IMG/VR virus record: IMGVR_UViG_2703718823_000008
Origin: a virus
Taxonomy: Duplodnaviria > Heunggongvirae > Uroviricota > Caudoviricetes
Reading direction: 5' to 3' (one strand)
DNA length: 33,510 nt
The number at the start of each line of letters is the position of its first letter. Within the stretch, counting starts at the first letter, position 1. The notes beneath the pieces are model-generated. The model was given only the letters and a program-made list of their open reading frames with translations. It was not told where the DNA came from and ran no database searches. Of this stretch, positions 1,251-15,278 are shown piece by piece. The position numbers were made by a program, and so were the translations under genes.

Positions 1251-1895
1251 CTATTTAACTGTCCATGCCGGGCTGAAATCCACTTCCTGAAATAACTCAG
1301 TTAGCCCGCTAATTTGTTTAAGTCTCAGTACTTCATCCTGATCCATACCCAACTCAGTGCCAATGCGTTCATCTGCCCATCCCAAGCGTGAAAGATCTCT
1401 TACAATATCAGACACTGAGTCTATCTGGTGTTTCCCCCTAGCCCGGTTATGTCGAATGGTTGCGGCAATGCGTGCGGCTTGCCCTTTTCTCTCTGGATTA
1501 ATACAGGCTACAGGCAGCCAGCCCCTCAGACGTTTTCCTGTAACTGATTCTCTGCCCAATAACTGACGATGAAAACCATCCACCACCAGATAATGATTCT
1601 TCTCCTCTGACACCACCACCGGTTGTGTGAAACCATCTTTTTCCAGTGACTGCTTCAGCAGTTTCTTCTCACTTGGTGCCATGACATTGGGGTTATAATC
1701 GTTGGCTACCACCTCATCCGCTTTCACCCACAGCACACAGTCTACAGGCTCCTGTGCAAAAGGACTGACTTCATGCAGTACCCTGCGCAGATGGTTAAGG
1801 GCTCGTATGGACTCTTCTTCGGGCTGTTCCCGACTGAAGTACTGACGAATCATGTTGCTTAGTACATCCATCTCAGGCGTCACAGAATCCCCCAT
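1251..1895 (-). CDS. ibrB: ParB-like nuclease domain protein (IbrB family)
   Basis: 214-aa ORF overlapping the upstream PAPS-reductase-like gene by 16 nt (operon); ParB/Srx-like N-terminal region; pairing with an IbrA-like gene. Confidence 0.8.
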   Translation of the reverse strand: MGDSVTPEMDVLSNMIRQYFSREQPEEESIRALNHLRRVLHEVSPFAQEPVDCVLWVKADEVVANDYNPNVMAPSEKKLLKQSLEKDGFTQPVVVSEEKNHYLVVDGFHRQLLGRESVTGKRLRGWLPVACINPERKGQAARIAATIRHNRARGKHQIDSVSDIVRDLSRLGWADERIGTELGMDQDEVLRLKQISGLTELFQEVDFSPAWTVK

Positions 1896-3106
1896 TCTTT
1901 CCTCCTTTCCTTCATTCGTTGCAGATAACGCTCATAGTGCCGGGGTTTGTTCGGACTGAAGGAGAGGGTCCGGCACCAGAAGTCATTCTTTATGAGCGTC
2001 TTACAGATACGTCGCCAGGACGGGATATCCCGGCTCCCCAGGTCATTCTCCTGTTCATCCGGGATATCATCCGGGAAGCCCCGCGTCTGATACCAGCGCA
2101 GGTAGACTGCAATTTTGTTACGGTAATGTTCTGCTGTTCTTTCTGGCATAACATCCAGCATGAACATTGCGTAGCTGCGCCAGGTATGATGAGCCGGTTT
2201 TGTGATTCGTTTACGCAGAGCAAAATAGGCACCGCTTTCATTGGCATAAAGAGCGCCACTGGCAGCCCCTGACACTCGCTCACACATCCTGGCCCAGGTT
2301 TCCGGCTCCAGAACATGGTAAAGCCACAGCCCCTTACGCTGTTCCGGGCCAAAGGGCTCACAAACACGCATGTTGCGTAACGACACTCCGGCACGGTACA
2401 TTAGGTCGTACAGGGGATTGTAGATGGCGCGGGTTCTTGAGTTATACGTCCATATATCATTTGTTTTCCAGTCATACAATGGATACATGGTGTAGTAAAA
2501 ACCATCGGGTGAAGCGGTGGTCCAGGGTTTATCATCTGCATATCTCAGTTTGCGCTGAGACACCAGTCCCATAAAGCGATTGAGCGATTCATCAGCACGA
2601 ACACCAGTTAGTATTCCCACTCCACATCGGTTACCGGCAAACCAGGAAGAAAATGCCGGAACAAATTCTTCAAACGTCATGGCATACCGATAAAATGGGA
2701 AATACGACATATCTGTAATAGCGTCATCTGGTGGCTGACGAACCCATTCTACACCTGGCTCCCAACATATCCATTCTGGCTGAAACTGAGAGACGCCATT
2801 TACCGTAGTCAGAGGAAGCGCTACCCAGTAAAAATTGTCTGTCACATGCCGGTACATTTCCCTCATCTTTTGGATATGATTAATCGTGCACTGATATTGG
2901 GCTTCCCAGTCAATGAATAAAACCGAAAAACGACGTTTTTTTCTACTGGCGACTTCTGCCACAAGATGGAAAAGCACAGTAGAGTCTTTGCCACCAGAAA
3001 AAGACAAGCAGACCTCATTAAACGTTTCGAACAACCATTCAATGCGATGGATTGCTGCTGACAGAACATTTTCCCCTGTGCTGATTTTTGTTATGGTTCC
3101 TGACAT
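1880..3106 (-). CDS. ibrA: PAPS reductase-like PP-loop protein (IbrA family)
   Basis: 408-aa ORF with PP-loop motif SGGKDS near the N-terminus (FSGGKDSTVLFHL); low-GC flanks; AT-rich promoter-like region at 3107-3260. Confidence 0.85.
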   Translation of the reverse strand: MSGTITKISTGENVLSAAIHRIEWLFETFNEVCLSFSGGKDSTVLFHLVAEVASRKKRRFSVLFIDWEAQYQCTINHIQKMREMYRHVTDNFYWVALPLTTVNGVSQFQPEWICWEPGVEWVRQPPDDAITDMSYFPFYRYAMTFEEFVPAFSSWFAGNRCGVGILTGVRADESLNRFMGLVSQRKLRYADDKPWTTASPDGFYYTMYPLYDWKTNDIWTYNSRTRAIYNPLYDLMYRAGVSLRNMRVCEPFGPEQRKGLWLYHVLEPETWARMCERVSGAASGALYANESGAYFALRKRITKPAHHTWRSYAMFMLDVMPERTAEHYRNKIAVYLRWYQTRGFPDDIPDEQENDLGSRDIPSWRRICKTLIKNDFWCRTLSFSPNKPRHYERYLQRMKERRKEWGIL

Positions 3107-4614: not shown

Positions 4615-4974
4615 ATGCTCATAGATTTGGTTTTACCTTACCCGCCAACGGTGAACACCTACTGGCGTCGTCGTGGCAGCACATATTTTATCTCGGAGGA
4701 GGGAAAGCGCTATCGCCGTGCTGTGGCGCTTATTGTTAACCAGCAGCGGCTGAAATTAAGCCTGTCCGGAAGGCTGGTAATCAGGATTATTGCAGAGCCA
4801 CCGGATAAGCGCCGCCGTGACCTGGACAATATTCTGAAAGCGCCGCTGGATGCGCTTACGCATGCGGGGTTGTTAATGGACGATGAGCAGTTTGATGAAA
4901 TCAATATTGTGCGTGGCCTGCCTGTTCCTGGCGGGCGGCTGGGGATAAAAATCACAGAACTGGAGTGCGCATGA
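4615..4974 (+). CDS. rusA: Holliday junction resolvase RusA
   Basis: 119-aa ORF; N-terminal LPYPPTVNTYWR and central DxDN region characteristic of RusA; GAGG SD. Confidence 0.9.
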   Translation: MLIDLVLPYPPTVNTYWRRRGSTYFISEEGKRYRRAVALIVNQQRLKLSLSGRLVIRIIAEPPDKRRRDLDNILKAPLDALTHAGLLMDDEQFDEINIVRGLPVPGGRLGIKITELECA

Positions 4975-5654
4975 ATAACCAGTATTTACAGTTTGTTCGT
5001 GAGCAACTCATGATTGCCACTGCGGATCTCAGTGGGGCGACAAAAGGCCAGCTGGAAGCCTGGCAGGAGAATGCCCTGTTCGATACAGGGCGTTACAGAC
5101 GCAAAAAAATTCGTTATCGCGATGAGGTAACCGGAAAAATGATCACGCGGGATAATCAACCGATCCCGGGTAAACAATCACTGGCGAAAGGCTCATCAAT
5201 TGCGCTGGTCAGTCCGGTTGAGTTTGCAACATCATCGTGGCGGCGTGCCGTTCTGGAACTGGAAGAACATCAGAAGGCGTGGTTACTGTGGTGCTACAGT
5301 GGAAATGTTTGCTGGGAAGATCAGGTCACTATAACACAATGGGTATGGGGTGAGTTTAAAGCTCAGGCTGGTACCAGAAAAATTGCAGGGAAAACGCTGG
5401 ATCGTCTGAAGAAACTGATTTGGCTGGCGGCACAGGATGTGAAGAGTGAGCTGGCAGGGCGTGAGACCTATGAACATCAGGAGTTAGCGGTGTTCATAGG
5501 AGTTGCTAAATCTACATGGACAAAAACACACAGGCCTCACTGGTTGGCTATGCGGGGTAGTGCAGAGATGCTGGACAGGGATGCTCTTATTTCAGTAATG
5601 CGGGTACGTTCACGGCAAAAGTCGATTAATTTAGAACCATATCTTGCAAAATAG
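4971..5654 (+). CDS. Late-gene antiterminator Q-like protein
   Basis: Start overlaps the rusA stop (ATGA); position immediately after rusA and before stacked terminators and the late genes; family assignment is by position and loose recall, not a verified motif. Confidence 0.65.
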   Translation: MNNQYLQFVREQLMIATADLSGATKGQLEAWQENALFDTGRYRRKKIRYRDEVTGKMITRDNQPIPGKQSLAKGSSIALVSPVEFATSSWRRAVLELEEHQKAWLLWCYSGNVCWEDQVTITQWVWGEFKAQAGTRKIAGKTLDRLKKLIWLAAQDVKSELAGRETYEHQELAVFIGVAKSTWTKTHRPHWLAMRGSAEMLDRDALISVMRVRSRQKSINLEPYLAK

Positions 5655-5725: not shown

Positions 5726-5748
5726 CCCCGCCGCCGAGCGGGTTTTTT
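5726..5748 (+). terminator. Intrinsic terminator-like hairpin with T6 tail downstream of the Q-like gene
   Basis: CCCCGCCGCCGAGCGGG followed by TTTTTT. Confidence 0.45.
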
Positions 5749-5912
5749 GTTGGCTTAACAGGTTATAATGTACAGTGCGAAACTGCCTGTTCAGCAGAAT
5801 CATAGAGTGTTGACTGATACTGTCGCTGTACCCTGATGGGACTTGTGAGACTTCCGAACTGGAAGCCAGGAGTAGCAATAAGGTGATGACAAGCCTGCTG
5901 CCCTGTGTAAAA

Positions 5913-5941
5913 GGCACCTTAATGGTGCCTTTGTCGTTTTT
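5913..5941 (+). terminator. Intrinsic terminator (GGCACC-TTAA-GGTGCC followed by a T-rich tail)
   Basis: Perfect 6-bp stem with 4-nt loop, followed by TTTGTCGTTTTT. Confidence 0.55.
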
Positions 5942-5952
5942 ATCAAAAGATC

Positions 5953-5976
5953 CCCGCCACTGGCGGGTTTTTTTTT
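5953..5976 (+). terminator. Strong intrinsic terminator, candidate tR' of the late operon
   Basis: CCCGCC-ACT-GGCGGG stem-loop followed by T9; the NN at 5978-5979 lies just 3' of it. Confidence 0.6.
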
Positions 5977-6331: not shown

Positions 6332-7390
6332 ATGCTTAATACTGTAAAAATATCCAGTTGTGAGTTAATCAACGCCGACTGCCTTGAATTTATCCGGTCG
6401 TTACCCGAAAATTCTGTTGACCTGATAGTCACGGACCCGCCGTACTTTAAAGTGAAGCCTGAGGGCTGGGATAACCAGTGGAAGGGCGACGATGATTACC
6501 TGAAGTGGCTGGACCAGTGTCTTGCGCAGTTCTGGCGGGTGCTGAAACCTGCCGGAAGTCTTTACCTGTTCTGTGGCCATCGCCTGGCATCTGATATCGA
6601 AATCATGATGCGTGAACACTTCAGTGTGCTGAACCATATTATCTGGGCAAAGCCGTCCGGACGCTGGAACGGGTGCAACAAGGAAAGCCTGAGGGCGTAT
6701 TTCCCCGCCACAGAGCGCATTCTGTTCGCGGAACATTATCAGGGGCCGTATCGCCCGAAAGATGCCGGGTATGAGGCGAAGGGCAGGGCACTGAAACAGC
6801 ATGTGATGGCCCCGCTGATTTCTTACTTTCGTGATGCGCGTGCTGCCCTGGGGATAACGGCAAAACAGATAGTGGATGCCACAGGAAAGAAAAATATGGT
6901 GTCGCACTGGTTCAGTGCCAGCCAGTGGCAGTTACCGGACGAAAGCGATTATCTGAAATTACAGGCGCTGTTTGCCCGGGTGGCAGAAGAGAAGCATCAG
7001 CGCGGAGAACTGGAAAAGCCACATCACCAACTGGTCAGCACATACAGTGAACTGAACCGGCAGTATACGGAACTGCAGAGTGAATATAAGCATCTGCGGC
7101 GGTATTTCGGTGTGACGGTGCGGGTGCCGTACACCGATGTGTGGACGCATAAACCGGTGCAGTACTATCCCGGGAAACATCCGTGCGAAAAACCGGCAGA
7201 AATGCTGCAGCAGATAATCAGTGCGAGCAGTCGTCCGGGTGACCTGGTTGCAGATTTCTTCATGGGGTCGGGTTCGACAGTCAAAGCAGCGATGGTGTTG
7301 GGGCGTCGTGCTACAGGCGTTGAGCTGGAGACTGAACGTTTTGAGCAGACGGTCAGGGAAGTTCAGGATTTAGCCAGCCAGAACGGATGA
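6332..7390 (+). CDS. Orphan DNA methyltransferase (N6-adenine or N4-cytosine, beta class)
   Basis: DPPY motif near the N-terminus (LIVTDPPYF) and FxGxG S-adenosylmethionine-binding motif (FFMGSGST) near the C-terminus; no adjacent restriction endonuclease gene. Confidence 0.9.
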   Translation: MLNTVKISSCELINADCLEFIRSLPENSVDLIVTDPPYFKVKPEGWDNQWKGDDDYLKWLDQCLAQFWRVLKPAGSLYLFCGHRLASDIEIMMREHFSVLNHIIWAKPSGRWNGCNKESLRAYFPATERILFAEHYQGPYRPKDAGYEAKGRALKQHVMAPLISYFRDARAALGITAKQIVDATGKKNMVSHWFSASQWQLPDESDYLKLQALFARVAEEKHQRGELEKPHHQLVSTYSELNRQYTELQSEYKHLRRYFGVTVRVPYTDVWTHKPVQYYPGKHPCEKPAEMLQQIISASSRPGDLVADFFMGSGSTVKAAMVLGRRATGVELETERFEQTVREVQDLASQNG

Positions 7391-7430: not shown

Positions 7431-7506
7431 GGCCCTTTAGCTCAGTGGTGAGAGCGAGCGACTCATAATCGCCAGGTCGCTGGTTCAAATCCAGCAAGGG
7501 CCACCA
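7431..7506 (+). tRNA. tRNA with CAT anticodon, Ile2 (lysidine) type, resembling the host ileX/ileY tRNA and the ileZ of Stx phages
   Basis: Manual cloverleaf fold: acceptor GGCCCTT/AAGGGCC, D-loop with GG, anticodon loop CTCATAA, T-loop TTCAAAT, 3' CCA encoded. Confidence 0.85.
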
Positions 7507-7515
7507 TATCACATA

Positions 7516-7592
7516 CCGCCATTAGCTCATCGGGATAGAGCGCCAGCCTTCGGAGCTGGCTGCGCGGGGTTCGAGTCCTCGATGGCGGTCCA
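7516..7592 (+). tRNA. tRNA-Arg with TCG anticodon
   Basis: Manual cloverleaf fold: acceptor CCGCCAT/ATGGCGG, anticodon stem CCAGC/GCTGG with loop CTTCGGA (G at position 37), T-loop TTCGAGT, 3' CCA encoded. Confidence 0.75.
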
Positions 7593-7870
7593 TTATCTGC
7601 ATCATGCGTTGTTAGCTCTGATGAGTGAATCATTGTCTTTTGAGCAACAGGCTATCATATAAGATAGTCTCAGATTTCCTTGTTTATTCTCGCCGGATGC
7701 TTCGTAGATATTTGCAGGCATCTGTATGCAGGGGTATTATTGCGGCATATATCATCCGGAAAAATAAAAACTACATGCTGATCCGGAGATGATAGTTACA
7801 AGTCCTCCCGGATCCCGCATATTTACTATATTTTATAGATAATTGTTCTTGTTAATATGGAGATGGATAA

Positions 7871-8299
7871 ATGTATTGCCGTGCTGTACCGGTTCTTGTT
7901 TTGATATTAGCCAGTCTGACAACTGGCTGCACAAAAGATGTATCGACAAATAATTATGATGCTTCGCTGCATCACTCAGATAAATTAATAAAGTCGCAAA
8001 ATTTGAGCTTATCGGAACGTACCCCTGATGCCAGTGAAGAAATCCGGCAGTATGCCATTCAGGTCAGGGAAGCCATAGAAGAACAGTTAAAGGATGCGGG
8101 TAAGTATTCAGGAAAAGAGTGTTCACTGAGAATGTATATGGCCCCGAATGGTCTTCTGCTACAGGTTAAAAGAGAAAGCGGTGATCCCGATTTATGTCGT
8201 GAAGCGATGAATGCAGTAAAGAATGCTGATATACCATCACCACCGTCTTCAGGAGTATATAAAGCATTTAGAAATGGCGTGCTGGATTTTAAACTCTGA
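7871..8299 (+). CDS. Lipoprotein carrying a stand-alone TolA C-terminal (domain III)-like domain
   Basis: 142-aa ORF; signal peptide with lipobox-like LTTGC (Thr at +2); C-terminal 80 aa aligns by eye to E. coli TolA domain III (GKxC-LR---APnG-LL, GDP-LC, IP-PPS, VY--F-N--LDFK); GGAG SD; low-GC gene. Confidence 0.8.
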   Translation: MYCRAVPVLVLILASLTTGCTKDVSTNNYDASLHHSDKLIKSQNLSLSERTPDASEEIRQYAIQVREAIEEQLKDAGKYSGKECSLRMYMAPNGLLLQVKRESGDPDLCREAMNAVKNADIPSPPSSGVYKAFRNGVLDFKL

Positions 8300-8321
8300 C
8301 TGGGGGAGAAGATTTTCTCCT

Positions 8322-8612
8322 GTCCAGATGATTTTGGGGTGCTGGAAAGATATTGTGCTGTGAAGTGTTAAATTCCTCACAATTCAGTAAGTTGACAGTT
8401 GCCTGTCAGACTGGGCATTTGTTAAAAAAATTTCGCATGGTGAATCCCCCTGTGCGGAGGGGCGACTGGTGAACGGTATGATCTCTTTGATGATCGTAAG
8501 CGAGAATACGCGGGTTTAGTGTCACCGGGCTGAACTCACCGGGAGGCACCCGGCACCATGCTCATGGTGATACAGAAATGCGGCTTCAGCCCCTCTCTGG
8601 AGGGGCTTTCTT
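8322..8612 (+). repeat. Structured noncoding repeat unit A (about 270-290 bp) ending in an intrinsic terminator; candidate sRNA or 3'-UTR element
   Basis: Shares conserved blocks with units B and C (GTTAAAT-CCTCACA-TTCAG; TGAATCCCCCTG-GCGGAGGGGC; ACCGGGAGGCACCCGGCAC-ATG); terminator GCCCCTC-TCTG-GAGGGGC plus T-tail at 8589-8612. Confidence 0.6.
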
Positions 8613-8618
8613 ATGGAC

Positions 8619-8646
8619 AAAAAAGCCCGCGCTGGGAGACGCGGGC
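8619..8646 (-). terminator. Minus-strand intrinsic terminator capping repeat element D1 (about 8619-8745)
   Basis: GCCCGCG/CGCGGGC stem preceded on + by A6 (T6 on the minus strand); flank GGCAAGGAATAAA-CAATAAAACGTGAAGTAAT conserved with D2. Confidence 0.5.
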
Positions 8647-8765
8647 GGCAAGGAATAAACAATAAAACGTGAAGTAATATTTCAGCTGGCGAATAATACC
8701 CCATAGTAATCACTCTGCGCAACTGCGCGGCCTTTTTCGAATTGCGGGCTGTAGTCTCCCTTCTG

Positions 8766-8930
8766 CCGGGTGGCCTGGTTGCAGATTTCTTCATGGGGTA
8801 GGGTTCGGCAGTTAAAGCAGCGATGGCGCTGGGGCGTCGTGCTATAGGCGTTGAGCTGGATACCGGGCGTTTTGAACAGACTGCGCAGGCAATCAGGGAT
8901 ATATTTATCGGTAGCTGTTTGCAGAAGTAA
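8766..8930 (+). pseudogene. 3' fragment of a second, diverged DNA methyltransferase gene (homologous to 7232-7390) with an in-frame TAG
   Basis: Nucleotide homology to the 3' end of the intact methyltransferase; translation gives LVADFFMG*GSAVKAAMALGRRAIGVELDTGRFEQT; no upstream part of the gene. Confidence 0.7.
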
Positions 8931-9004
8931 TCTCCCAAAATTCCATTTTTGGAATGCAGTGGTTGTTGCTGTAGTGTGGGCAAGTTCTGGAACTGGCTTC
9001 GTCC

Positions 9005-9281
9005 ATTGCAGATGATTGTTAGCTGGATATCAGTTACCTCATGGAAATGTTAAATGACTCACAATTCGGTTGATGGACTATTGTCTGATTGATGGAAGTC
9101 TTGTAAAAACGAGCCAGCATAGTGAATCCCCCTGTGCGGAGGGGCGTCTGACATGGTCTCCATAGCGATGGTCACAATACGCAGATTCAGTAGTCAGGCT
9201 GAATCTACCGGGAGGCACCCGGCACTATGCTGCTTATGGTGTATACACAGCGATCGGCCCCTCTCCTGAGGGGCTTTTTTT
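9005..9281 (+). repeat. Structured noncoding repeat unit B ending in an intrinsic terminator
   Basis: Same conserved blocks as unit A; terminator GCCCCTC-TCCT-GAGGGGC plus T7 at 9257-9281. Confidence 0.6.
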
Positions 9282-9289
9282 GTGCGGGA

Positions 9290-9543
9290 AAAGGCTGTGT
9301 TGTTAAATGTTAAATCCCTCACAGTTCAGATGGTTGATGCTTGCCTGTCTGACGGGGAGTTGTTAAAAAAGTTCTGCATGGTGAATCCCCCTGAGCGGAG
9401 GGGCATATCAGCGCAGGTGTTTCTACTCTATCCTTTCTGTGCGGGTTCAGGTGCTGATACTGAACTCACCGGGAGGCACCCGGCACCATGTAGTATACAG
9501 AGATTAGGCATACATCCAGGCTCCTCATTGCAGGAGCCTTTTT
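9290..9543 (+). repeat. Structured noncoding repeat unit C ending in an intrinsic terminator
   Basis: Same conserved blocks as units A and B; terminator AGGCTCCT-CATTGC-AGGAGCCT plus T4 at 9518-9543 (different stem sequence, same structure). Confidence 0.6.
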
Positions 9544-9549
9544 ACATGC

Positions 9550-9577
9550 AAAAAAACCGCTCCAGGGAAGAGCGGTT
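9550..9577 (-). terminator. Minus-strand intrinsic terminator capping repeat element D2 (about 9550-9668)
   Basis: CCGCTC/GAGCGG stem preceded on + by A7; flanks conserved with D1 while the stem sequence differs and pairing is preserved. Confidence 0.5.
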
Positions 9578-9767
9578 GGCAAGGAATAAATAACAAAACG
9601 TGAAGTAATTTATTCAGCGCCCTAATAATACCTTACAGTAATCACATTGCGCAACTGTATGTAAGGGCGTATTTCTTTTTTGCGGGCTGTTTTGTGTGAC
9701 TTTTGTGTTTCCGGAGGTCAGCCCGAGCCTTCTCTGACTCAGAACATTATTCCGGCCGGGAGGATTC

Positions 9768-11756
9768 ATGGCATTTAAACACTACGATGTGGTCAGGGCG
9801 GCATCGCCGTCAGACCTTGCTGAACGACTGACACAAAAACTGAAGGAGGGGTGGCAGCCATTTGGCAGCCCTGTCGCCATCACGCCTTATACCCTGATGC
9901 AGGCTATTGCGGCGGAAGGTGATGTCACCACGCCGGTGCTGGTTAAACCATCGGGTGACGGGGAGACGGCTATCAGCAAGACCGGTGAGCCTGAATATTA
10001 TTATGTTGTCGCGCTGGCGGGTCAGTCAAATGGTATGTCTTTTGGAGAGGGAGTACCGTTACCTGATTCTTATGATCGCCCTGATCCGAGAATTAAGCAG
10101 CTTGCCCGTCGACGTACCGTTACGCCGCGAGGCGTTCCCTGCACCTATAACGATGTTATTCCGGCAGATCATTGTCTTCATGATGTGATGGATATGAGTG
10201 AAAAAAATCACCCCCGGGCAGACCTCAATAAAGGTCAGTATGGTTGTGTGGGTCAGGGACTGCATATTGCCAAAAAACTGTTACCGTTTATACCGGCGAA
10301 TGCGGGCATTCTTCTGGTTCCATGCTGTCGTGGAGGCTCGGGAGTGACTACAGGTAATGAGGGAACATTTAACGCCTCTTCCGGGGCAAGCCCTGATTCT
10401 GCATTGTGGGGAGCTGATAAGCCGCTGTACCAGGATCTGTTAAGTCGCACGAAAGTCGCGCTGGCTAAAAATCCCGGAAATATCCTGCTGGCGGTAATCT
10501 GGATGCAGGGGGAGAGTGATCTGGCTTCAGGAAGCCAGAGTCATAATGCTCTTTTTACTGGCATGGTACAGAAATTCCGTGCTGACATCGCTGATATGTC
10601 AGGGCAGTGCGTGGGGGGCTCGGCACTGAGCGTTCCGTGGGTTTGTGGCGATACGACGCATTACTGGAAAGAAAAATATGCTGCGTCTTATGAAACTGTA
10701 TACGGTGGATATAAAAATAAGGCAGCGCAGAATATTCACTTTGTCCCTTTCATGGTTGATGGAAGCGGGGTAAATGTGCAGACCAATAATCCGGCAGAAG
10801 ATCCTGATATTGAAGGTATTGGCTACTCCGGTTCGAAGTGGCGAGACAGTTCTGTCAGCTGGACGTCAGGTGACAGGGCAAGCCATTTCGGTTCATGGGC
10901 GCGGCGTGGAATTATTTCAGATCGTCTTGCAACCGCAATTCTGACCCACGCAGGCAAATACCCGGCGTTTATCACCGGGCGGTCAGAAACGGTAGTTGCA
11001 GGAGATGAACGGGAAAACGTTACATCCGGAAATTTCCCGTCACCTGTGGAGGATGCTGCGTTATCACAGGATGCACCTCAGAGAAGAACGGTTGTTGAGT
11101 ATAATTCAGCTGTTGAGAAAGACAGCCTCGGTGGTAACTGGGCAGCCCAGCACTGGAATGCCCGGGACGGTGTCGCCGAGTTTGTTAATGATGAAAGCAG
11201 ACAGGTGCTGAAGATTAAGCAGCATGAGGGCAAACAGGGACCGTGGATGCTGTCAGCAGGAGTATCAGCTGAAGATGCCCGTGCTCTGTATGAAAATGGC
11301 GGTGAAATAAAACTTGAATTCAGGTTGCCGGATGGTACCCAGGTTGCAGATGACAAATACCTCTTTGGTGTTTACCTGCCAGTTTCCGGGTGGACTCAGG
11401 AAGGCAACGGCAGCAATATGATGGCCTCCTTTTTCACTCAGACAAAAGCCAGTAACCTGGATGTCATGTATCACGGTAAAACACAGCCTAATACAAAAAT
11501 TGAGTCATTCGGTGCGGTTAATAACAACTGGCACACGCTTGTCTTTAAATATAAAGGAGGCGGCAATCACCAGGTTATTCCGGTACTTGACGGAGAAGAG
11601 AAAACAGGTTTTGCACTGAAAGAAGGTCCGGTCACTTCTGCCTTTACGGTGGATAACATCACAGTGACAGGTATCAGCGCAAATCAGGGAAAATCTTATC
11701 CTGTCATGTTCCGCAGTATCATGGTAAGCATTAACCAGGCAACCTCTTCATCATAA
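9768..11756 (+). CDS. NanS-p-like sialate O-acetylesterase (DUF1737-like N-terminus plus SGNH-hydrolase-like domain)
   Basis: 662-aa ORF; N-terminus MAFKHYDVVRA...GWQPFGSPV resembles the DUF1737 domain of prophage NanS-p/YjhS-type esterases as recalled; GGGAGG SD; position between the stx-equivalent slot and the lysis cassette. Confidence 0.8.
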   Translation: MAFKHYDVVRAASPSDLAERLTQKLKEGWQPFGSPVAITPYTLMQAIAAEGDVTTPVLVKPSGDGETAISKTGEPEYYYVVALAGQSNGMSFGEGVPLPDSYDRPDPRIKQLARRRTVTPRGVPCTYNDVIPADHCLHDVMDMSEKNHPRADLNKGQYGCVGQGLHIAKKLLPFIPANAGILLVPCCRGGSGVTTGNEGTFNASSGASPDSALWGADKPLYQDLLSRTKVALAKNPGNILLAVIWMQGESDLASGSQSHNALFTGMVQKFRADIADMSGQCVGGSALSVPWVCGDTTHYWKEKYAASYETVYGGYKNKAAQNIHFVPFMVDGSGVNVQTNNPAEDPDIEGIGYSGSKWRDSSVSWTSGDRASHFGSWARRGIISDRLATAILTHAGKYPAFITGRSETVVAGDERENVTSGNFPSPVEDAALSQDAPQRRTVVEYNSAVEKDSLGGNWAAQHWNARDGVAEFVNDESRQVLKIKQHEGKQGPWMLSAGVSAEDARALYENGGEIKLEFRLPDGTQVADDKYLFGVYLPVSGWTQEGNGSNMMASFFTQTKASNLDVMYHGKTQPNTKIESFGAVNNNWHTLVFKYKGGGNHQVIPVLDGEEKTGFALKEGPVTSAFTVDNITVTGISANQGKSYPVMFRSIMVSINQATSSS

Positions 11757-11902
11757 AACAAAAAAACGCCAGCGCAGAGGAGAACGGGAGGATAAGTCTG
11801 ACGCTGGCGGAGGAGTATCCTCATGGAGAACGATATGTAACACATATCGCCTTTCTTTTATTGAAAAGTCATCGCCATTGTCAACCATAACGGTAAGAAA
11901 CT

Positions 11903-12085
11903 ATGACATTTGTTCATCAACTGATGCTGTACTTCTGTACGGTGGTATGCGTGCTGTATCTTCTTTCGGGTGGGTACAGAGTCGTGCGCGATTTCTGGCG
12001 CAGGCAGATTGATAAAAGGGCCGCTGAGAAAATCAGCGCCAGTCAGTCAGCCGGAAGCAAACCCGAAGATCCGCTCATTCCGTAG
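11903..12085 (+). CDS. Small putative membrane protein (60 aa)
   Basis: N-terminal hydrophobic helix; weak SD. Confidence 0.3.
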   Translation: MTFVHQLMLYFCTVVCVLYLLSGGYRVVRDFWRRQIDKRAAEKISASQSAGSKPEDPLIP

Positions 12086-12122
12086 TCACTTTCTTGACAA
12101 CACCTTTCAACGAGAAAATCCT

Positions 12123-12392
12123 ATGTCAGAAATAAAATCGCTGGTAACTGCTGAGGCAGTGAAGGAAGTCCTGCGCTCTGAAGAAGTCCTGAGCGCACTG
12201 AAACAAAAACTCCGCCAGAATCTTGAGGCGCGTCTTGATGCAGAAGTGGATGCCATTCTGGATGAACTGCTGGGCGCACCGACTGTTCCGGAGCCGGAAG
12301 GCATTGCGGATGACAGTGCTGTTTCAGATGGCGTCGGGTCTCAGCCTGACGGTAGTGAAGAGCCTCAGCCTGACGGCGAAATGATGATGTAA
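12123..12392 (+). CDS. Small acidic hypothetical protein (89 aa)
   Basis: Internal ATG of the 140-aa track ORF chosen as start (MSEIKSLVTAEAV...); acidic C-terminus. Confidence 0.5.
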   Translation: MSEIKSLVTAEAVKEVLRSEEVLSALKQKLRQNLEARLDAEVDAILDELLGAPTVPEPEGIADDSAVSDGVGSQPDGSEEPQPDGEMMM

Positions 12393-12466
12393 CCATGCGC
12401 AGGGGTGTCGGTGTGAGCTGATGCCCCACTTGTTGTTGTGAGCTTCCGGATTGCGGGAGACGGGGT

Positions 12467-12682
12467 ATGTACCAGATGGAAAAAATCACAACAGGTTTGT
12501 CATACACCACGTCAGCGGTGGGAACGGGCTACTGGTTCCTGCAGTTGCTGGACAGGGTTTCCCCGTCTCAGTGGGCGGCAATAGGCGTGCTGGGGAGTCT
12601 GCTGTTTGGGCTGCTGACATATCTGACGAACCTGTATTTCAAAATTAAAGAAGACCGGCGTAAGGCGGCGCGGGGAGAGTAA
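12467..12682 (+). CDS. S: Holin, phage 21 S-type pinholin with dual start (Met1 and Met4)
   Basis: 71-aa ORF closely matching the phage 21 S pinholin ([22 protein letters not shown]...[22 protein letters not shown]) as recalled. Confidence 0.85.
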
Positions 12683-12686
12683 GCTG

Positions 12687-13220
12687 ATGAGCAGGAAACT
12701 CCGCTATGGTTTATCGGCTGCCGTTCTGGCGCTGATTGGTGCAGGGGCGTCTGCGCCTGAAATCCTCGACCAGTTTCTGGATGAAAAAGAAGGCAACCAC
12801 ACCACGGCATACCGTGATGGCGCGGGTATCTGGACCATCTGCCGTGGAGCCACCCGGGTGGATGGTAAGCCTGTTATTCCTGGCATGAAGTTGACGAAGG
12901 AAAAATGCGACCAGGTTAACGCCATTGAACGTGATAAGGCGCTGGCATGGGTGGAGAAAAACATCAAAGTGCCACTGACCGAACCCCAGAAAGCGGGTAT
13001 TGCGTCATTCTGCCCGTATAACATTGGCCCAGGTAAGTGTTTCCCGTCGACGTTTTATAAACGAATTAATGCAGGCGATCGCAGGGGAGCGTGTGAGGCG
13101 ATTCGCTGGTGGATTAAGGACGGTGGCAGAGACTGCCGTATTCGCTCAAATAATTGCTACGGTCAGATATCCCGTCGTGACCAGGAGAGCGCGCTGGCGT
13201 GCTGGGGAATCGACAGATAA
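12687..13220 (+). CDS. R: SAR endolysin (lysozyme-like with N-terminal signal-anchor-release helix)
   Basis: 177-aa ORF; N-terminal hydrophobic SAR-like segment LSAAVLALIGAGA; lysozyme-like core; directly follows the holin. Confidence 0.9.
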   Translation: MSRKLRYGLSAAVLALIGAGASAPEILDQFLDEKEGNHTTAYRDGAGIWTICRGATRVDGKPVIPGMKLTKEKCDQVNAIERDKALAWVEKNIKVPLTEPQKAGIASFCPYNIGPGKCFPSTFYKRINAGDRRGACEAIRWWIKDGGRDCRIRSNNCYGQISRRDQESALACWGIDR

Positions 13221-13313
13221 GCAGAATATTTTGCTGAAAAATGACGTTGACCAACGCGGACGGATAACACGAAATCCTGCGAACTGGCAAAACCTAGTGA
13301 ATAAAAGTAAAAA

Positions 13314-13346
13314 CCCCGTTTGTTGGCAGCAAGCGGGGTTTTGTGT
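13314..13346 (+). terminator. Strong intrinsic terminator-like hairpin between the endolysin and Rz
   Basis: 9-bp stem CCCCGTTTG/CAAGCGGGG with 7-nt loop, followed by TTTTGTGTTT; A-run on the 5' side makes it potentially bidirectional. Confidence 0.5.
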
Positions 13347-13417
13347 TTCCTGACTCCGGAAAAGTCAAAGGAGAAAGTGTGTTTAATTTTAGCAAACTGA
13401 TTCGGGAGATTCGAGTG

Positions 13418-13516
13418 ATGGCTGAAAAATTATCCACCTGGAAGTTCATCCTTATCTGGCTGGTGTTTGTGATTATGGCCTCCGGTTATTTCATCGGTCA
13501 GATACGCTGGTGGTGA
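13418..13516 (+). CDS. Small single-TM peptide (32 aa; [32 protein letters not shown])
   Basis: GGAG about 10 nt upstream; stop overlaps the Rz start region; below the ORF-track length cut-off. Confidence 0.3.
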
Positions 13517-13517
13517 A

Positions 13518-14012
13518 ATGAACCGCGTTCTGTGTGTGGTCATTATTGCCTTGCTGGTGGCCTGTGGTGCGCTTAGTCTGGGGCTGAATCATTACCGTGA
13601 TAACGCCATCACCTACAAAGCGCAGCGCGATAAAAAAGCCAGAGAGCTGGAGCTGGCAAACGCAACCATTACTGACATGCAGCAGCGCCAGCGTGATGTT
13701 GCTGCGCTTGATGCCAGATACTCAAGGGAATTAGCCGATGCGAGAGCTGAAAATGAAACTCTGCGTGCTGATGTTGCCGCTGGTCGTAAGCGCCTGCGGC
13801 TCAACGCCACCTGCCCCGGTACCGTGCGTGAAGCCACCGGCACCTCCGGCGTGGATAATGCAACCGGCCCCCGACTGGCAGACACCGCTGAACGGGATTA
13901 TTTCAACCTCAGAGAACGGTTGATGACAATGCAGAAGCAGCTGGAAGGGGCGCAGGAATATATACGCACTCAGTGCACTAAGCTGGCTTTTTATTATCCG
14001 GAGGATACATGA
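13518..14012 (+). CDS. Rz: Spanin, inner-membrane subunit Rz
   Basis: 164-aa ORF strongly resembling lambda Rz ([16 protein letters not shown]...[15 protein letters not shown]...[20 protein letters not shown]). Confidence 0.9.
13738..13923 (+). CDS. Rz1: Spanin, outer-membrane lipoprotein subunit Rz1 (embedded in the +1 frame of Rz)
   Basis: 61-aa ORF with lipobox LVVSAC and proline-rich [27 protein letters not shown] matching lambda Rz1. Confidence 0.8.
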
Positions 14013-14233
14013 AGAAATTACGGGTAACCGTAGAACCTTTTCAGGGAACAATTCCGTTCCGTATTTTGCAGCGTGGTCGTGTTCTTGTTGAAGGTTCGTT
14101 CAGTGGTAAATGTACGCAATTACACTCCCGGACCTTTCAGGTGAATGCCACGAATGAAGAGCTAACCGTTGAGTGTACGATGAATGCCGCTAAATGCCGC
14201 ATGGTATCCGCTGCATTACAGCCAGTGTGTTGA
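14009..14233 (+). CDS. Hypothetical small protein (74 aa, four Cys)
   Basis: Strong GGAGG SD 5 nt upstream; start overlaps the Rz stop. Confidence 0.45.
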
Positions 14234-14572
14234 GCGACCTTATTATCCATGGCGCGGTATTGTCGCCGTATTCCCGTATTAACAGAGACCGCAGCCCGAC
14301 AGGGAGACTCCTCTGCGCGAGTGTGCGGGGATAATCAAAAACGATACACACCGGGGTTTACCGCGTTAACGGAGCGCGGCGTTGTCCCCTCATGGTCGCT
14401 GGTCCGGTGCGATGGTGGAAGAAACCGGACGATGTGTTACCTCGCAAGCTCTGTTATGTCATGTGTCTGATTTGTGATTTAAGTCGGATAATTGTCGTTG
14501 CCATTAAGCAGAGGATTGATGACCGACAGGGTGGCATTGTTAGAATAAGACTTATTCTTATCTGTGCCGGGA

Positions 14573-14905
14573 ATGAAAATGAAAAGAAATCTTCCGTTAA
14601 TTATTTTGTTGTCTTCTCTGGTTATGGGCTGTACGCAACATAAAACAGATATGCCCCGACAGTTGGTTAAGGCATTACCACAATATCCGGCCTATGCAGC
14701 GGCAAATTATATAAAGGGACGGGTTGATGTGAAGTTTGATATTGGTGCTGATGGTACTGTCACCCGAATTGAGTTTATCCGTTCAGAGCCGCACCATCTG
14801 TTTGATGAGCAGGTTGTAAAAGCGATGGCAAAATGGCGATTTGAGAAGGACAGGCCGCGTAAAGGCGTGAAGAAAACGTTTATCTTTAGTCCTTCTGCAC
14901 CCTGA
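14573..14905 (+). CDS. Lipoprotein carrying a stand-alone TonB C-terminal domain
   Basis: Signal peptide with lipobox LVMGC (Thr at +2); C-terminal region aligns by eye to E. coli TonB C-terminus (PQYPA-A----I-G-V-VKFD---DG-V...S-P---F......AM--WR-E); promoter-like TTGATG and TAGAAT plus palindrome AGAATAAG-A-CTTATTCT at 14542-14558 upstream. Confidence 0.8.
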   Translation: MKMKRNLPLIILLSSLVMGCTQHKTDMPRQLVKALPQYPAYAAANYIKGRVDVKFDIGADGTVTRIEFIRSEPHHLFDEQVVKAMAKWRFEKDRPRKGVKKTFIFSPSAP

Positions 14906-15036
14906 TTATTTCATCAGAAATTAATTATCACTCTGTTGTTATTCTGTACATCCCGGCAGGGTAAGTCTTGTTCCGTCGGATATGAAGATGAAATATTGTT
15001 GGAGGACAGTGGGTACCTGCTCCTGTAACCGAACGT

Positions 15037-15237
15037 TCATTTCTCGTTATTTGTCATGCTGGCCGGGCGCAGATGCGTTGCATCTGTTGCCAGCCTTCTC
15101 CTGCAGGCTTCAATAACCCACGCTGAAAAGTTACCGGACCCTTTATGCTCAAGGGCGATGTTGATCTGTTCAATCATGTGATTGGGGAAACGGATATTGC
15201 GGGTTGTGGTTCTGCGGGTCCGGTTTTTCGATGACAT
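15037..15237 (-). CDS. Small ribbon-helix-helix-like DNA-binding protein (YlcI/DUF3950-like)
   Basis: Internal ATG with AAGGA SD chosen as start; IRFPNHMIEQINIALEHKGSGNFSAWVIEACRRRL resembles RHH/Arc-type proteins; divergent from the HNH gene. Confidence 0.55.
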   Translation of the reverse strand: MSSKNRTRRTTTRNIRFPNHMIEQINIALEHKGSGNFSAWVIEACRRRLATDATHLRPASMTNNEK

Positions 15238-15278
15238 ATTTATTTCCTTTACTGATTGCCATATGACGGGGATTTTAC

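Follow-up and report, generated by a model that had tools for sequence, protein, structure and literature searches.

Two lipoproteins of a lambdoid prophage built on the ligand-binding domains of TolA and TonB: candidate decoys of envelope import

A lambdoid prophage of Escherichia coli encodes, in its late region, two short proteins that each join a lipobox signal to the ligand-binding C-terminal domain, and to no other part, of an energy transducer, TolA in one case and TonB in the other. The prophage was analysed as IMG/VR record IMGVR_UViG_2703718823_000008, hereafter the window (33,510 nucleotides, with a guanine plus cytosine (GC) content of 0.53 over the whole length). Positions 7593-15278 of the window are 100% identical to E. 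coli strain S19-651 (CP075852), and alignment to phages gives the late region the gene architecture of Shiga toxin (Stx) phages. Both genes are intact, evolve under purifying selection and occupy classic variable slots of lambdoid phages; they are separable, independent morons (cargo inserts) linked here by descent and do not form an obligate pair. We propose, with what we judge to be an even chance of being right, that both products act as energy-uncoupled competitors tethered to the outer membrane, which would confer exclusion or colicin tolerance on the lysogen. Both genes are already annotated in public records and the comparable kind is that of phage and plasmid exclusion or conversion lipoproteins; full-text literature searches found no published characterisation of either gene.

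Architecture of the two lipoproteins

The TolA-like gene (7871-8299, + strand, 142 amino acids) matches the Pfam TolA C-terminal family (PF06519, E=3.4e-22) over residues 53-140 and covers only positions 298-386 of the 387-position model of full-length TolA. Compared with E. coli TolA domain III or TolAIII (PDB 1S62, 1TOL, 3QDP/3QDR), the likeness extends over the whole domain, with about 51% identity to TolA residues 334-420, retention of both disulfide cysteines and a matching C-terminal strand region; the ligand-contact segments SLRMYMAPNGLLLQVK and VYKAFRNGVLDFK are well conserved. E. coli TolA also possesses domain I, the N-terminal membrane anchor coupling it to TolQR, and the long helical domain II, whereas the phage protein has in their place a signal peptide with a lipobox ending at Cys20 (ASLTTG/C20, Thr at +2 in a PROSITE-type pattern, codon 7928-7930) and a short disordered linker of about 32 residues (21-52), followed by TolA domain III (53-142). 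In the AlphaFold model, residues 1-52 are disordered. A Shine-Dalgarno-like GGAG is found about 10 nt 5' of the ATG. The score of the protein against NF007065 (99.8 bits) is below the cut-off of 213, so that it fails as a full-length equivalog, and its score against TIGR02794 (72.6 bits) is above the cut-off of 59.45; the latter accounts for the name 'TolA' assigned by the Prokaryotic Genome Annotation Pipeline (PGAP). The gene lies outside the tolQRA-tolB-pal operon, between the phage tRNAs and nanS-p in the prophage late region.

The TonB-like protein matches Pfam TonB_C (PF03544, E=5.8e-15). Its open reading frame (ORF) opens at GTG 14564 and contains two further candidate starts, ATG 14573 and ATG 14579; since NCBI homologues are 108 amino acids long, the start is likely ATG 14579 and the gene is placed here at 14579-14905 (+ strand). 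The protein is composed of a lipobox signal ending at Cys18 (SSLVMG/C18, Thr at +2 in the same type of pattern, codon 14630-14632), a linker of about 8 residues and the TonB C-terminal domain (about 26-106). Its alignment to E. coli TonB spans residues 151-231 and takes in the PQYP (YP) motif. Likeness to the E. coli TonB C-terminal domain (PDB 2GSK_B, 2GRX_C, 1U07) amounts to 37-39% identity and a root-mean-square deviation (rmsd) of 1.1-2.1 Å, and comprises the YP motif and the strand that pairs with the Ton box. The model of the phage protein (predicted local distance difference test, pLDDT, 84) matches TonB as bound in the BtuB:TonB complex (2gsk_B), with a template-modelling score (TM) of 0.91 and an rmsd of 1.1 Å. 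The segments that contact ligands, namely the PQYP motif and the final beta-strand, are well conserved, and the residue equivalent to TonB Q160 is a Leu; Q160L is a classic Ton-box suppressor allele of TonB. The protein passes TIGR01352 (56.4 bits, cut-off 27.1) and fails the full-length TonB models NF008081-84 (60-73 bits, cut-offs 265-448), its match being limited to model positions of about 151-240. E. coli TonB has an anchor and a proline-rich spacer; the phage protein is lipid-anchored and lacks both, hence it is not energisable by ExbBD.

The same design, a lipobox signal followed by only the ligand-binding C-terminal domain, is therefore borne out for both genes by Pfam, model-position and lipobox evidence, as the earlier note on this DNA had described it. 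The lipobox cysteine is constant among homologues of both families while the signal sequences diverge: it is retained as far as the Klebsiella homologue at 46% identity in the TonB-like family, and in two subfamilies with differing signal peptides in the TolA-like family. From the lipobox and the Thr at +2, which predicts sorting to the inner leaflet of the outer membrane, both proteins are probable outer-membrane lipoproteins. The earlier note had also called the two genes unrelated. This holds insofar as recent paralogy was rejected (hhalign probability 2.5%), but both domains match Pfam TonB_2, and TolAIII and the TonB C-terminal domain share a fold (PMC7391070).

Selection, slots and linkage

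Purifying selection acts on both genes. By the Nei-Gojobori method, the ratio of nonsynonymous to synonymous substitution rates (dN/dS) between the window allele and divergent alleles (the mEp460, M3 and I3 alleles) is 0.35-0.39 for the whole TolA-like gene and 0.23-0.30 for its domain only; the TonB-like gene compared with that of phage 21 gives 0.115. These values answer the objection, anticipated in the earlier note, that both genes might be decayed pieces of tolA and tonB. Illegitimate recombination could in principle have left such non-functional remnants, PGAP does call the TolA-like protein simply 'TolA', and a few alleles carry C-terminal frameshifts. However, dN/dS stays far under 1 (about 0.35 and 0.12) and both reading frames are intact. 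The N-terminus has been replaced by a lipobox signal foreign to TolA and TonB; this signal persists in alleles at 46-65% identity and in different genera, and the slot position is conserved as well. Identity to the host proteins is only about 40-51%, hence there was no recent capture from E. coli. Taken together, low dN/dS, the conserved lipobox and the distance to the host proteins exclude recent decayed host fragments; decay is largely refuted as an explanation and we leave it a very slight probability. The contention that these are selected genes and not random fragments was right.

Both genes belong to the Q-dependent region, in agreement with the location in a common late region given by the earlier note. 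The features of this region are as follows.

4965-5654, + strand: antiterminator Q (PF06323, 1.2e-88), which sets the late operon containing both cargo genes
5727-5967: terminator-like hairpins 3' of Q
6332-7390: DNA methylase
7431-7592, + strand: tRNA-Met and tRNA-Arg, the usual upstream edge of the stx/cargo slot in Stx-type phages
7711-7740, + strand: weak promoter-like site upstream of the TolA-like gene (9/12 matches, within chance)
7871-8299, + strand: TolA-like gene (142 amino acids)
8300-9767: non-coding stretch of 1.47 kb
9768-11756, + strand: NanS-p-like sialate O-acetylesterase (DUF1737-SASA-DUF6645), a conserved late-region gene between both cargo genes
11903-12085: DUF1378
12467-14012, + strand: lysis cassette (holin 12467-12682, lysozyme 12687-13220, Rz 13518-14012, embedded Rz1 13738-13923)
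14009-14233, + strand: 74-amino-acid ORF overlapping the end of Rz
14519-14558, + strand: promoter-like site upstream of the TonB-like gene (ATGACC-16-TAGAAT, TG extension)
14579-14905, + strand: TonB-like gene (108 amino acids)
15279-15644: HNH endonuclease
15934 onwards: terminase

The TolA-like gene occupies the stx slot, after Q and the tRNAs, where Stx2 and Stx1 phages align to the window on either flank; the TonB-like gene occupies the bor slot, after Rz. The occupants of these two slots vary and include stx, tciAB, a porin, DUF1398, trkG, cspG/gnsB and bor. The GC content of the TolA-like and TonB-like genes is 0.42 and 0.44, respectively, against 0.50-0.57 in flanking genes; low GC and variable slot occupants together fit the signature of lambdoid morons. 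The morons bor of phage λ and stx share these two slots, the low-GC cargo signature and the variability of occupants. Their proteins and functions are unrelated to those described here, and bor is oriented opposite to the late genes whereas both genes of the window are co-oriented with the late operon. In phage JLK-2012, which has the TonB-like gene and the packaging module in common with the window, the stx slot contains tciA/tciB (L024:2978-3570), annotated for tellurite resistance and for cell-division inhibition or resistance to colicins; the slot of the TolA-like gene is a repeated host of envelope or resistance cargo.

Among 5426 complete E. coli genomes, the TolA-like gene is present in 126, the TonB-like gene in 415 and either gene in 431. 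Co-occurrence, derived from this union, which was counted with a concatenated-gene query, amounts to 110 genomes (110 of the 126 with the TolA-like gene) against 9.6 expected (hypergeometric log10 P of about -110). The earlier note had proposed to test whether the genes co-occur beyond chance, and by this count they do, but every co-occurrence inspected in its context is one inherited late module. In 8/8 non-redundant contexts sampled, the exact TolA-like protein is encoded in one and the same syntenic block, which runs from DUF551 to terminase and has the TonB_C gene 6.3 kb downstream. A 94%-identical TolA-like allele in FDAARGOS_1283 belongs to this late module too, preceded there by another early region. 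The association is thus due to physical linkage in one syntenic late module, and the genomes are not independent.

Each gene is also encountered without the other. Three other TolA-like allele types, covering 12 contexts, have no TonB_C gene. The post-lysis slot contains DUF1398 in the context of the M3 allele, in replacement of TonB_C, and likewise in 9/9 contexts of the P0010 allele; it contains trkG in the context of the I3 allele and cspG/gnsB in phage mEp460. Conversely, about 305 genomes have the TonB-like gene but no TolA-like counterpart, and the same is true of each of the 15 phage records with the TonB-like gene, phage 21 included. The TonB-like gene follows Rz and bor in phage 21 and stands between the lysis genes and terminase in a Klebsiella phage. 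Stx1a phages have it too, and their alignment to the window begins just past the TolA-like gene, which is therefore absent from them. The consistent companion of the TonB-like gene is the YlcI/HNH/terminase module.

These observations bear on the proposal of the earlier note that both genes make up a two-part system, co-selected to block both import routes, with the pairing itself under selection. The excess of genomes with both genes speaks for it, as does the retention of the pair behind two different early regions, and the porin moron of the same prophage (described below) suggests an envelope-remodelling gene set. Yet the inspected co-occurrences amount to a single module, in which the genes lie about 6.3 kb apart, the other TolA-like allele types and the solitary TonB-like genes dispense with the partner, and the actual travelling partner of the TonB-like gene is the YlcI-HNH-terminase module. 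One inherited module explains the pairing; co-selection is not supported and we regard it as quite improbable.

Other contents of the prophage deserve mention. The 1.47 kb separating the TolA-like gene from nanS-p are occupied by three + strand copies of the small RNA (sRNA) family STnc100 (Rfam RF02076) at 8406-8618, 9088-9283 and 9348-9549 (172, 121 and 164 bits), each closed by a terminator-like hairpin. The 74-amino-acid ORF at 14009-14233 is kept along with the late module in related contexts; it has no Pfam match and matches phrog_2571, a function-unknown family, covering only part of the 291-position profile. A full-length general porin gene (29581-30675, + strand; Pfam Porin_1, 4e-143) occupies an island of low GC (0.44) inserted between the tail genes M and L, and constitutes the third envelope-protein moron of the prophage. 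FDAARGOS_1283 carries an ompC-like porin shortly upstream of the TolA-like gene, with a methylase remnant and two tRNAs intervening. In the early region (1251-3106, - strand), a divergently oriented pair of genes, kept in 8/8 related prophage contexts, encodes a PAPS-reductase/DUF3440 protein, which in PADLOC is weakly similar to BrxP and DndC, and a ParB_N-like protein.

A candidate decoy function and its alternatives

The architecture of both proteins suggests how they might interfere with import. Both are predicted at the inner leaflet of the outer membrane and, the domains coupling TolA to the TolQR motor and TonB to the ExbBD motor being absent, they would not be energised. The TonB-C domain, on its tether of about 8 residues, would sit at the periplasmic face of TonB-dependent transporters and pair with Ton boxes by beta-strand augmentation, shutting out the real TonB. 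The TolA-C domain, on its flexible linker of about 32 residues, would be within reach of TolB-Pal or of incoming colicin and g3p segments, and could capture TolB by its N-terminus, group A colicins by their translocation domains and filamentous-phage g3p by its N1 domain. The net effect would be a reduced import of colicins and of Tol- or TonB-dependent phages, that is, a lysogenic-conversion or exclusion trait like those of T5 Llp and phi80 Cor. The analysis demonstrates the domain identity, architecture, conservation, selection, slot position and separability of the two genes, whereas outer-membrane localisation, ligand binding and phenotype are what we infer from the sequences and models; the decoy hypothesis is worth testing, and the architectural insight of the earlier note from which it stems is sound.

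The proposed contacts have precedents. By beta-strand augmentation, TolAIII docks colicin A, g3p N1 and the N-terminus of TolB, and the TonB C-terminal domain binds Ton boxes (PMC7391070). Overproduction of the periplasmic TonB domain inhibits TonB-dependent iron import mediated by FecA and FhuA (Howard et al. 2001, as cited in PMC9841981), which makes a decoy effect plausible. Engineered dominant-negative fragments of TonB and TolAIII resemble the phage proteins in being uncoupled periplasmic C-terminal domains, and the latter would likewise compete with the native transducer; the fragments are soluble, overproduced laboratory constructs, whereas the phage proteins are natural, lipid-tethered and encoded by a mobile element. 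Periplasmic TolAIII reportedly brings about colicin tolerance together with a leaky outer membrane, a result attributed to Levengood-Freyermuth et al. in 1993. Llp of phage T5, a small phage-encoded envelope lipoprotein, inactivates FhuA and blocks superinfection. Cor, a small envelope protein encoded by phi80 and N15, similarly inactivates the TonB-dependent receptor FhuA and blocks superinfection (PMC11436027). Llp and Cor have one receptor as their target; that of a TonB-C decoy would be the Ton box which many transporters share. No relationship to Llp or Cor turned up in the sequence searches, none of which was a comparison aimed at these two proteins.

Several points weigh against a decoy role in the lysogen. 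The model of the TolA-like protein is of modest quality (domain pLDDT of about 80) and reaches a TM of just 0.3-0.45 to TolAIII; although its top five Foldseek matches in the PDB are all E. coli TolAIII, the superposition is poor and the domain identity consequently rests on sequence identity. Some TolA-like alleles (P0019-P0028 in the alignment) are frameshifted at the C-terminus, the final 20 or so residues of the domain being replaced (...PAPPRRKYIKYFKMGCWILNP...), and such copies are probably inactivated. Neither protein matches a defence profile of PADLOC. A lysogen that makes a strong Tol or TonB decoy should incur costs, namely a leaky outer membrane, bile sensitivity and starvation for iron and vitamin B12. 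Since both genes are in the Q-dependent late operon without a convincing promoter of their own, they may mainly be expressed during lytic growth, when exclusion matters little. Finally, PHROGs labels the TonB-like family 'Rz-like spanin' and files it under lysis. Known spanins comprise either an i-spanin, with an N-terminal transmembrane domain and a coiled coil, together with an o-spanin that is a short, proline-rich lipoprotein, or a single lipoprotein that ends in a transmembrane domain at its C-terminus. The label was rejected for the TonB-like protein, which combines a lipobox with a globular TonB_C domain and has no terminal membrane helix within the modelled residues 26-108, in a prophage that has its own Rz and Rz1; we judge it a mis-annotation by neighbourhood.

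A promoter scan of the window returned weak consensus matches in the number expected from shuffled sequence, a result as compatible with lysogenic as with late expression. A Fur-box scan upstream of both genes gave a best match of 13/19, at chance level with about nine such matches in the window. A perfect 8-1-8 palindrome (AGAATAAG-A-CTTATTCT, 14542-14558) covers the candidate -10 element (TAGAAT) of the TonB-like gene; it is operator-like and represents the only lead for independent control of this gene.

The late location lends itself to a reading in which the two proteins serve the lytic cycle and, towards the end of infection, disable Tol-Pal and TonB. A weakened outer membrane or increased vesiculation could then aid lysis and release, or else, as with T5 Llp, progeny could be spared from being lost on the receptors of infected cells and debris. 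Both genes are 3' of Q and share their strand with the lysis genes. The TolA-like gene is 5' of the lysis cassette, with the three sRNA copies and nanS-p between them, and the TonB-like gene is a few hundred bases past Rz/Rz1, a neighbourhood of lysis genes that it keeps in phage 21 and in the Klebsiella phage. Promoter signals all within chance and the PHROGs category point the same way, and tol-pal mutants are known to bleb and overproduce vesicles (PMC7391070). On the other hand, the slots are the classic lysogenic-conversion slots of stx and bor, whose varying occupants are dispensable for lysis; of the lambdoid phages that share this lysis cassette, most have neither gene, and the prophage possesses a complete set of holin, endolysin and spanins. 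We consider a lytic role unlikely, while taking it seriously.

Alternatively, the genes might benefit the host by a conversion unrelated to import block, such as envelope stabilisation, binding to peptidoglycan or outer-membrane proteins, serum resistance or virulence. The TonB-like gene is found beside bor or in its place, Bor/Iss occupying the same slot, and carriers are mostly Shiga-toxin-producing E. coli (STEC) and other pathogenic strains. The wide spread of short TolA-C lipoproteins, on plasmids by relaxases as well, suggests a general envelope role. Against this, the retained domains are the exact ligand-docking modules, with the known contact segments kept, and searches of Pfam, PADLOC and PHROGs revealed no similarity to Bor or other known conversion factors. 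Such a benefit seems improbable to us next to a decoy function of the two domains.

Distribution of the design and its significance

The combination of a lipoprotein signal with TolA-C only is a broad and common architecture, annotated but uncharacterised. A HMMER scan over 1.84 billion cluster representatives (50% identity) retrieved 292 relatives of the TolA-like protein, the best 150 of which were classified. Among these 150, the strict lipobox pattern is found in 48/74 short TolA-C proteins (100-170 amino acids), several more of which have near-canonical boxes of the LTGC type, and in 3/61 long ones. PHROGs files the architecture as phrog_5772, a function-unknown family.

In mEp460 and strain I3, the TolA-like gene has as its tandem neighbour a second TolA-C lipoprotein paralogue, with an FVAGC lipobox and 25% identity to the TolA-like protein of the window (copies at L003:9501-9875, L001:6580-6975 and L025:3359-3790). 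This paralogue is present in 1269/5426 E. coli genomes (23%), with 525 places on plasmids, where it adjoins a MobA/relaxase gene. Identity of the plasmid paralogue with MbeD/MobD was rejected, as it has no Pfam MbeD_MobD match.

It is possible, though we lean against it, that outer-membrane-tethered C-terminal domains of TolA and TonB constitute a widespread, unrecognised class of import blockers of mobile elements. Prophages may then deploy them against colicins and TonB- or Tol-dependent phages. Filamentous phages need TolA, and the plasmid paralogue may shield pilus-bearing hosts from them.

The genes are common, the TolA-like and TonB-like genes being present in 126 and 415 of the 5426 complete E. 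coli genomes and the TolA-C paralogue in 1269. If the decoy function is true, mobile elements would be making natural use of dominant-negative transducer domains, and one small protein would blunt a whole import class, be it every Ton-box transporter or every colicin and filamentous phage that depends on TolA, in place of a single receptor. Such a trait would bear on the colicin and phage resistance of STEC, and also on phage-therapy host range, on the uptake of siderophore-antibiotic ("Trojan horse") conjugates and on the cost-benefit balance of prophage carriage.

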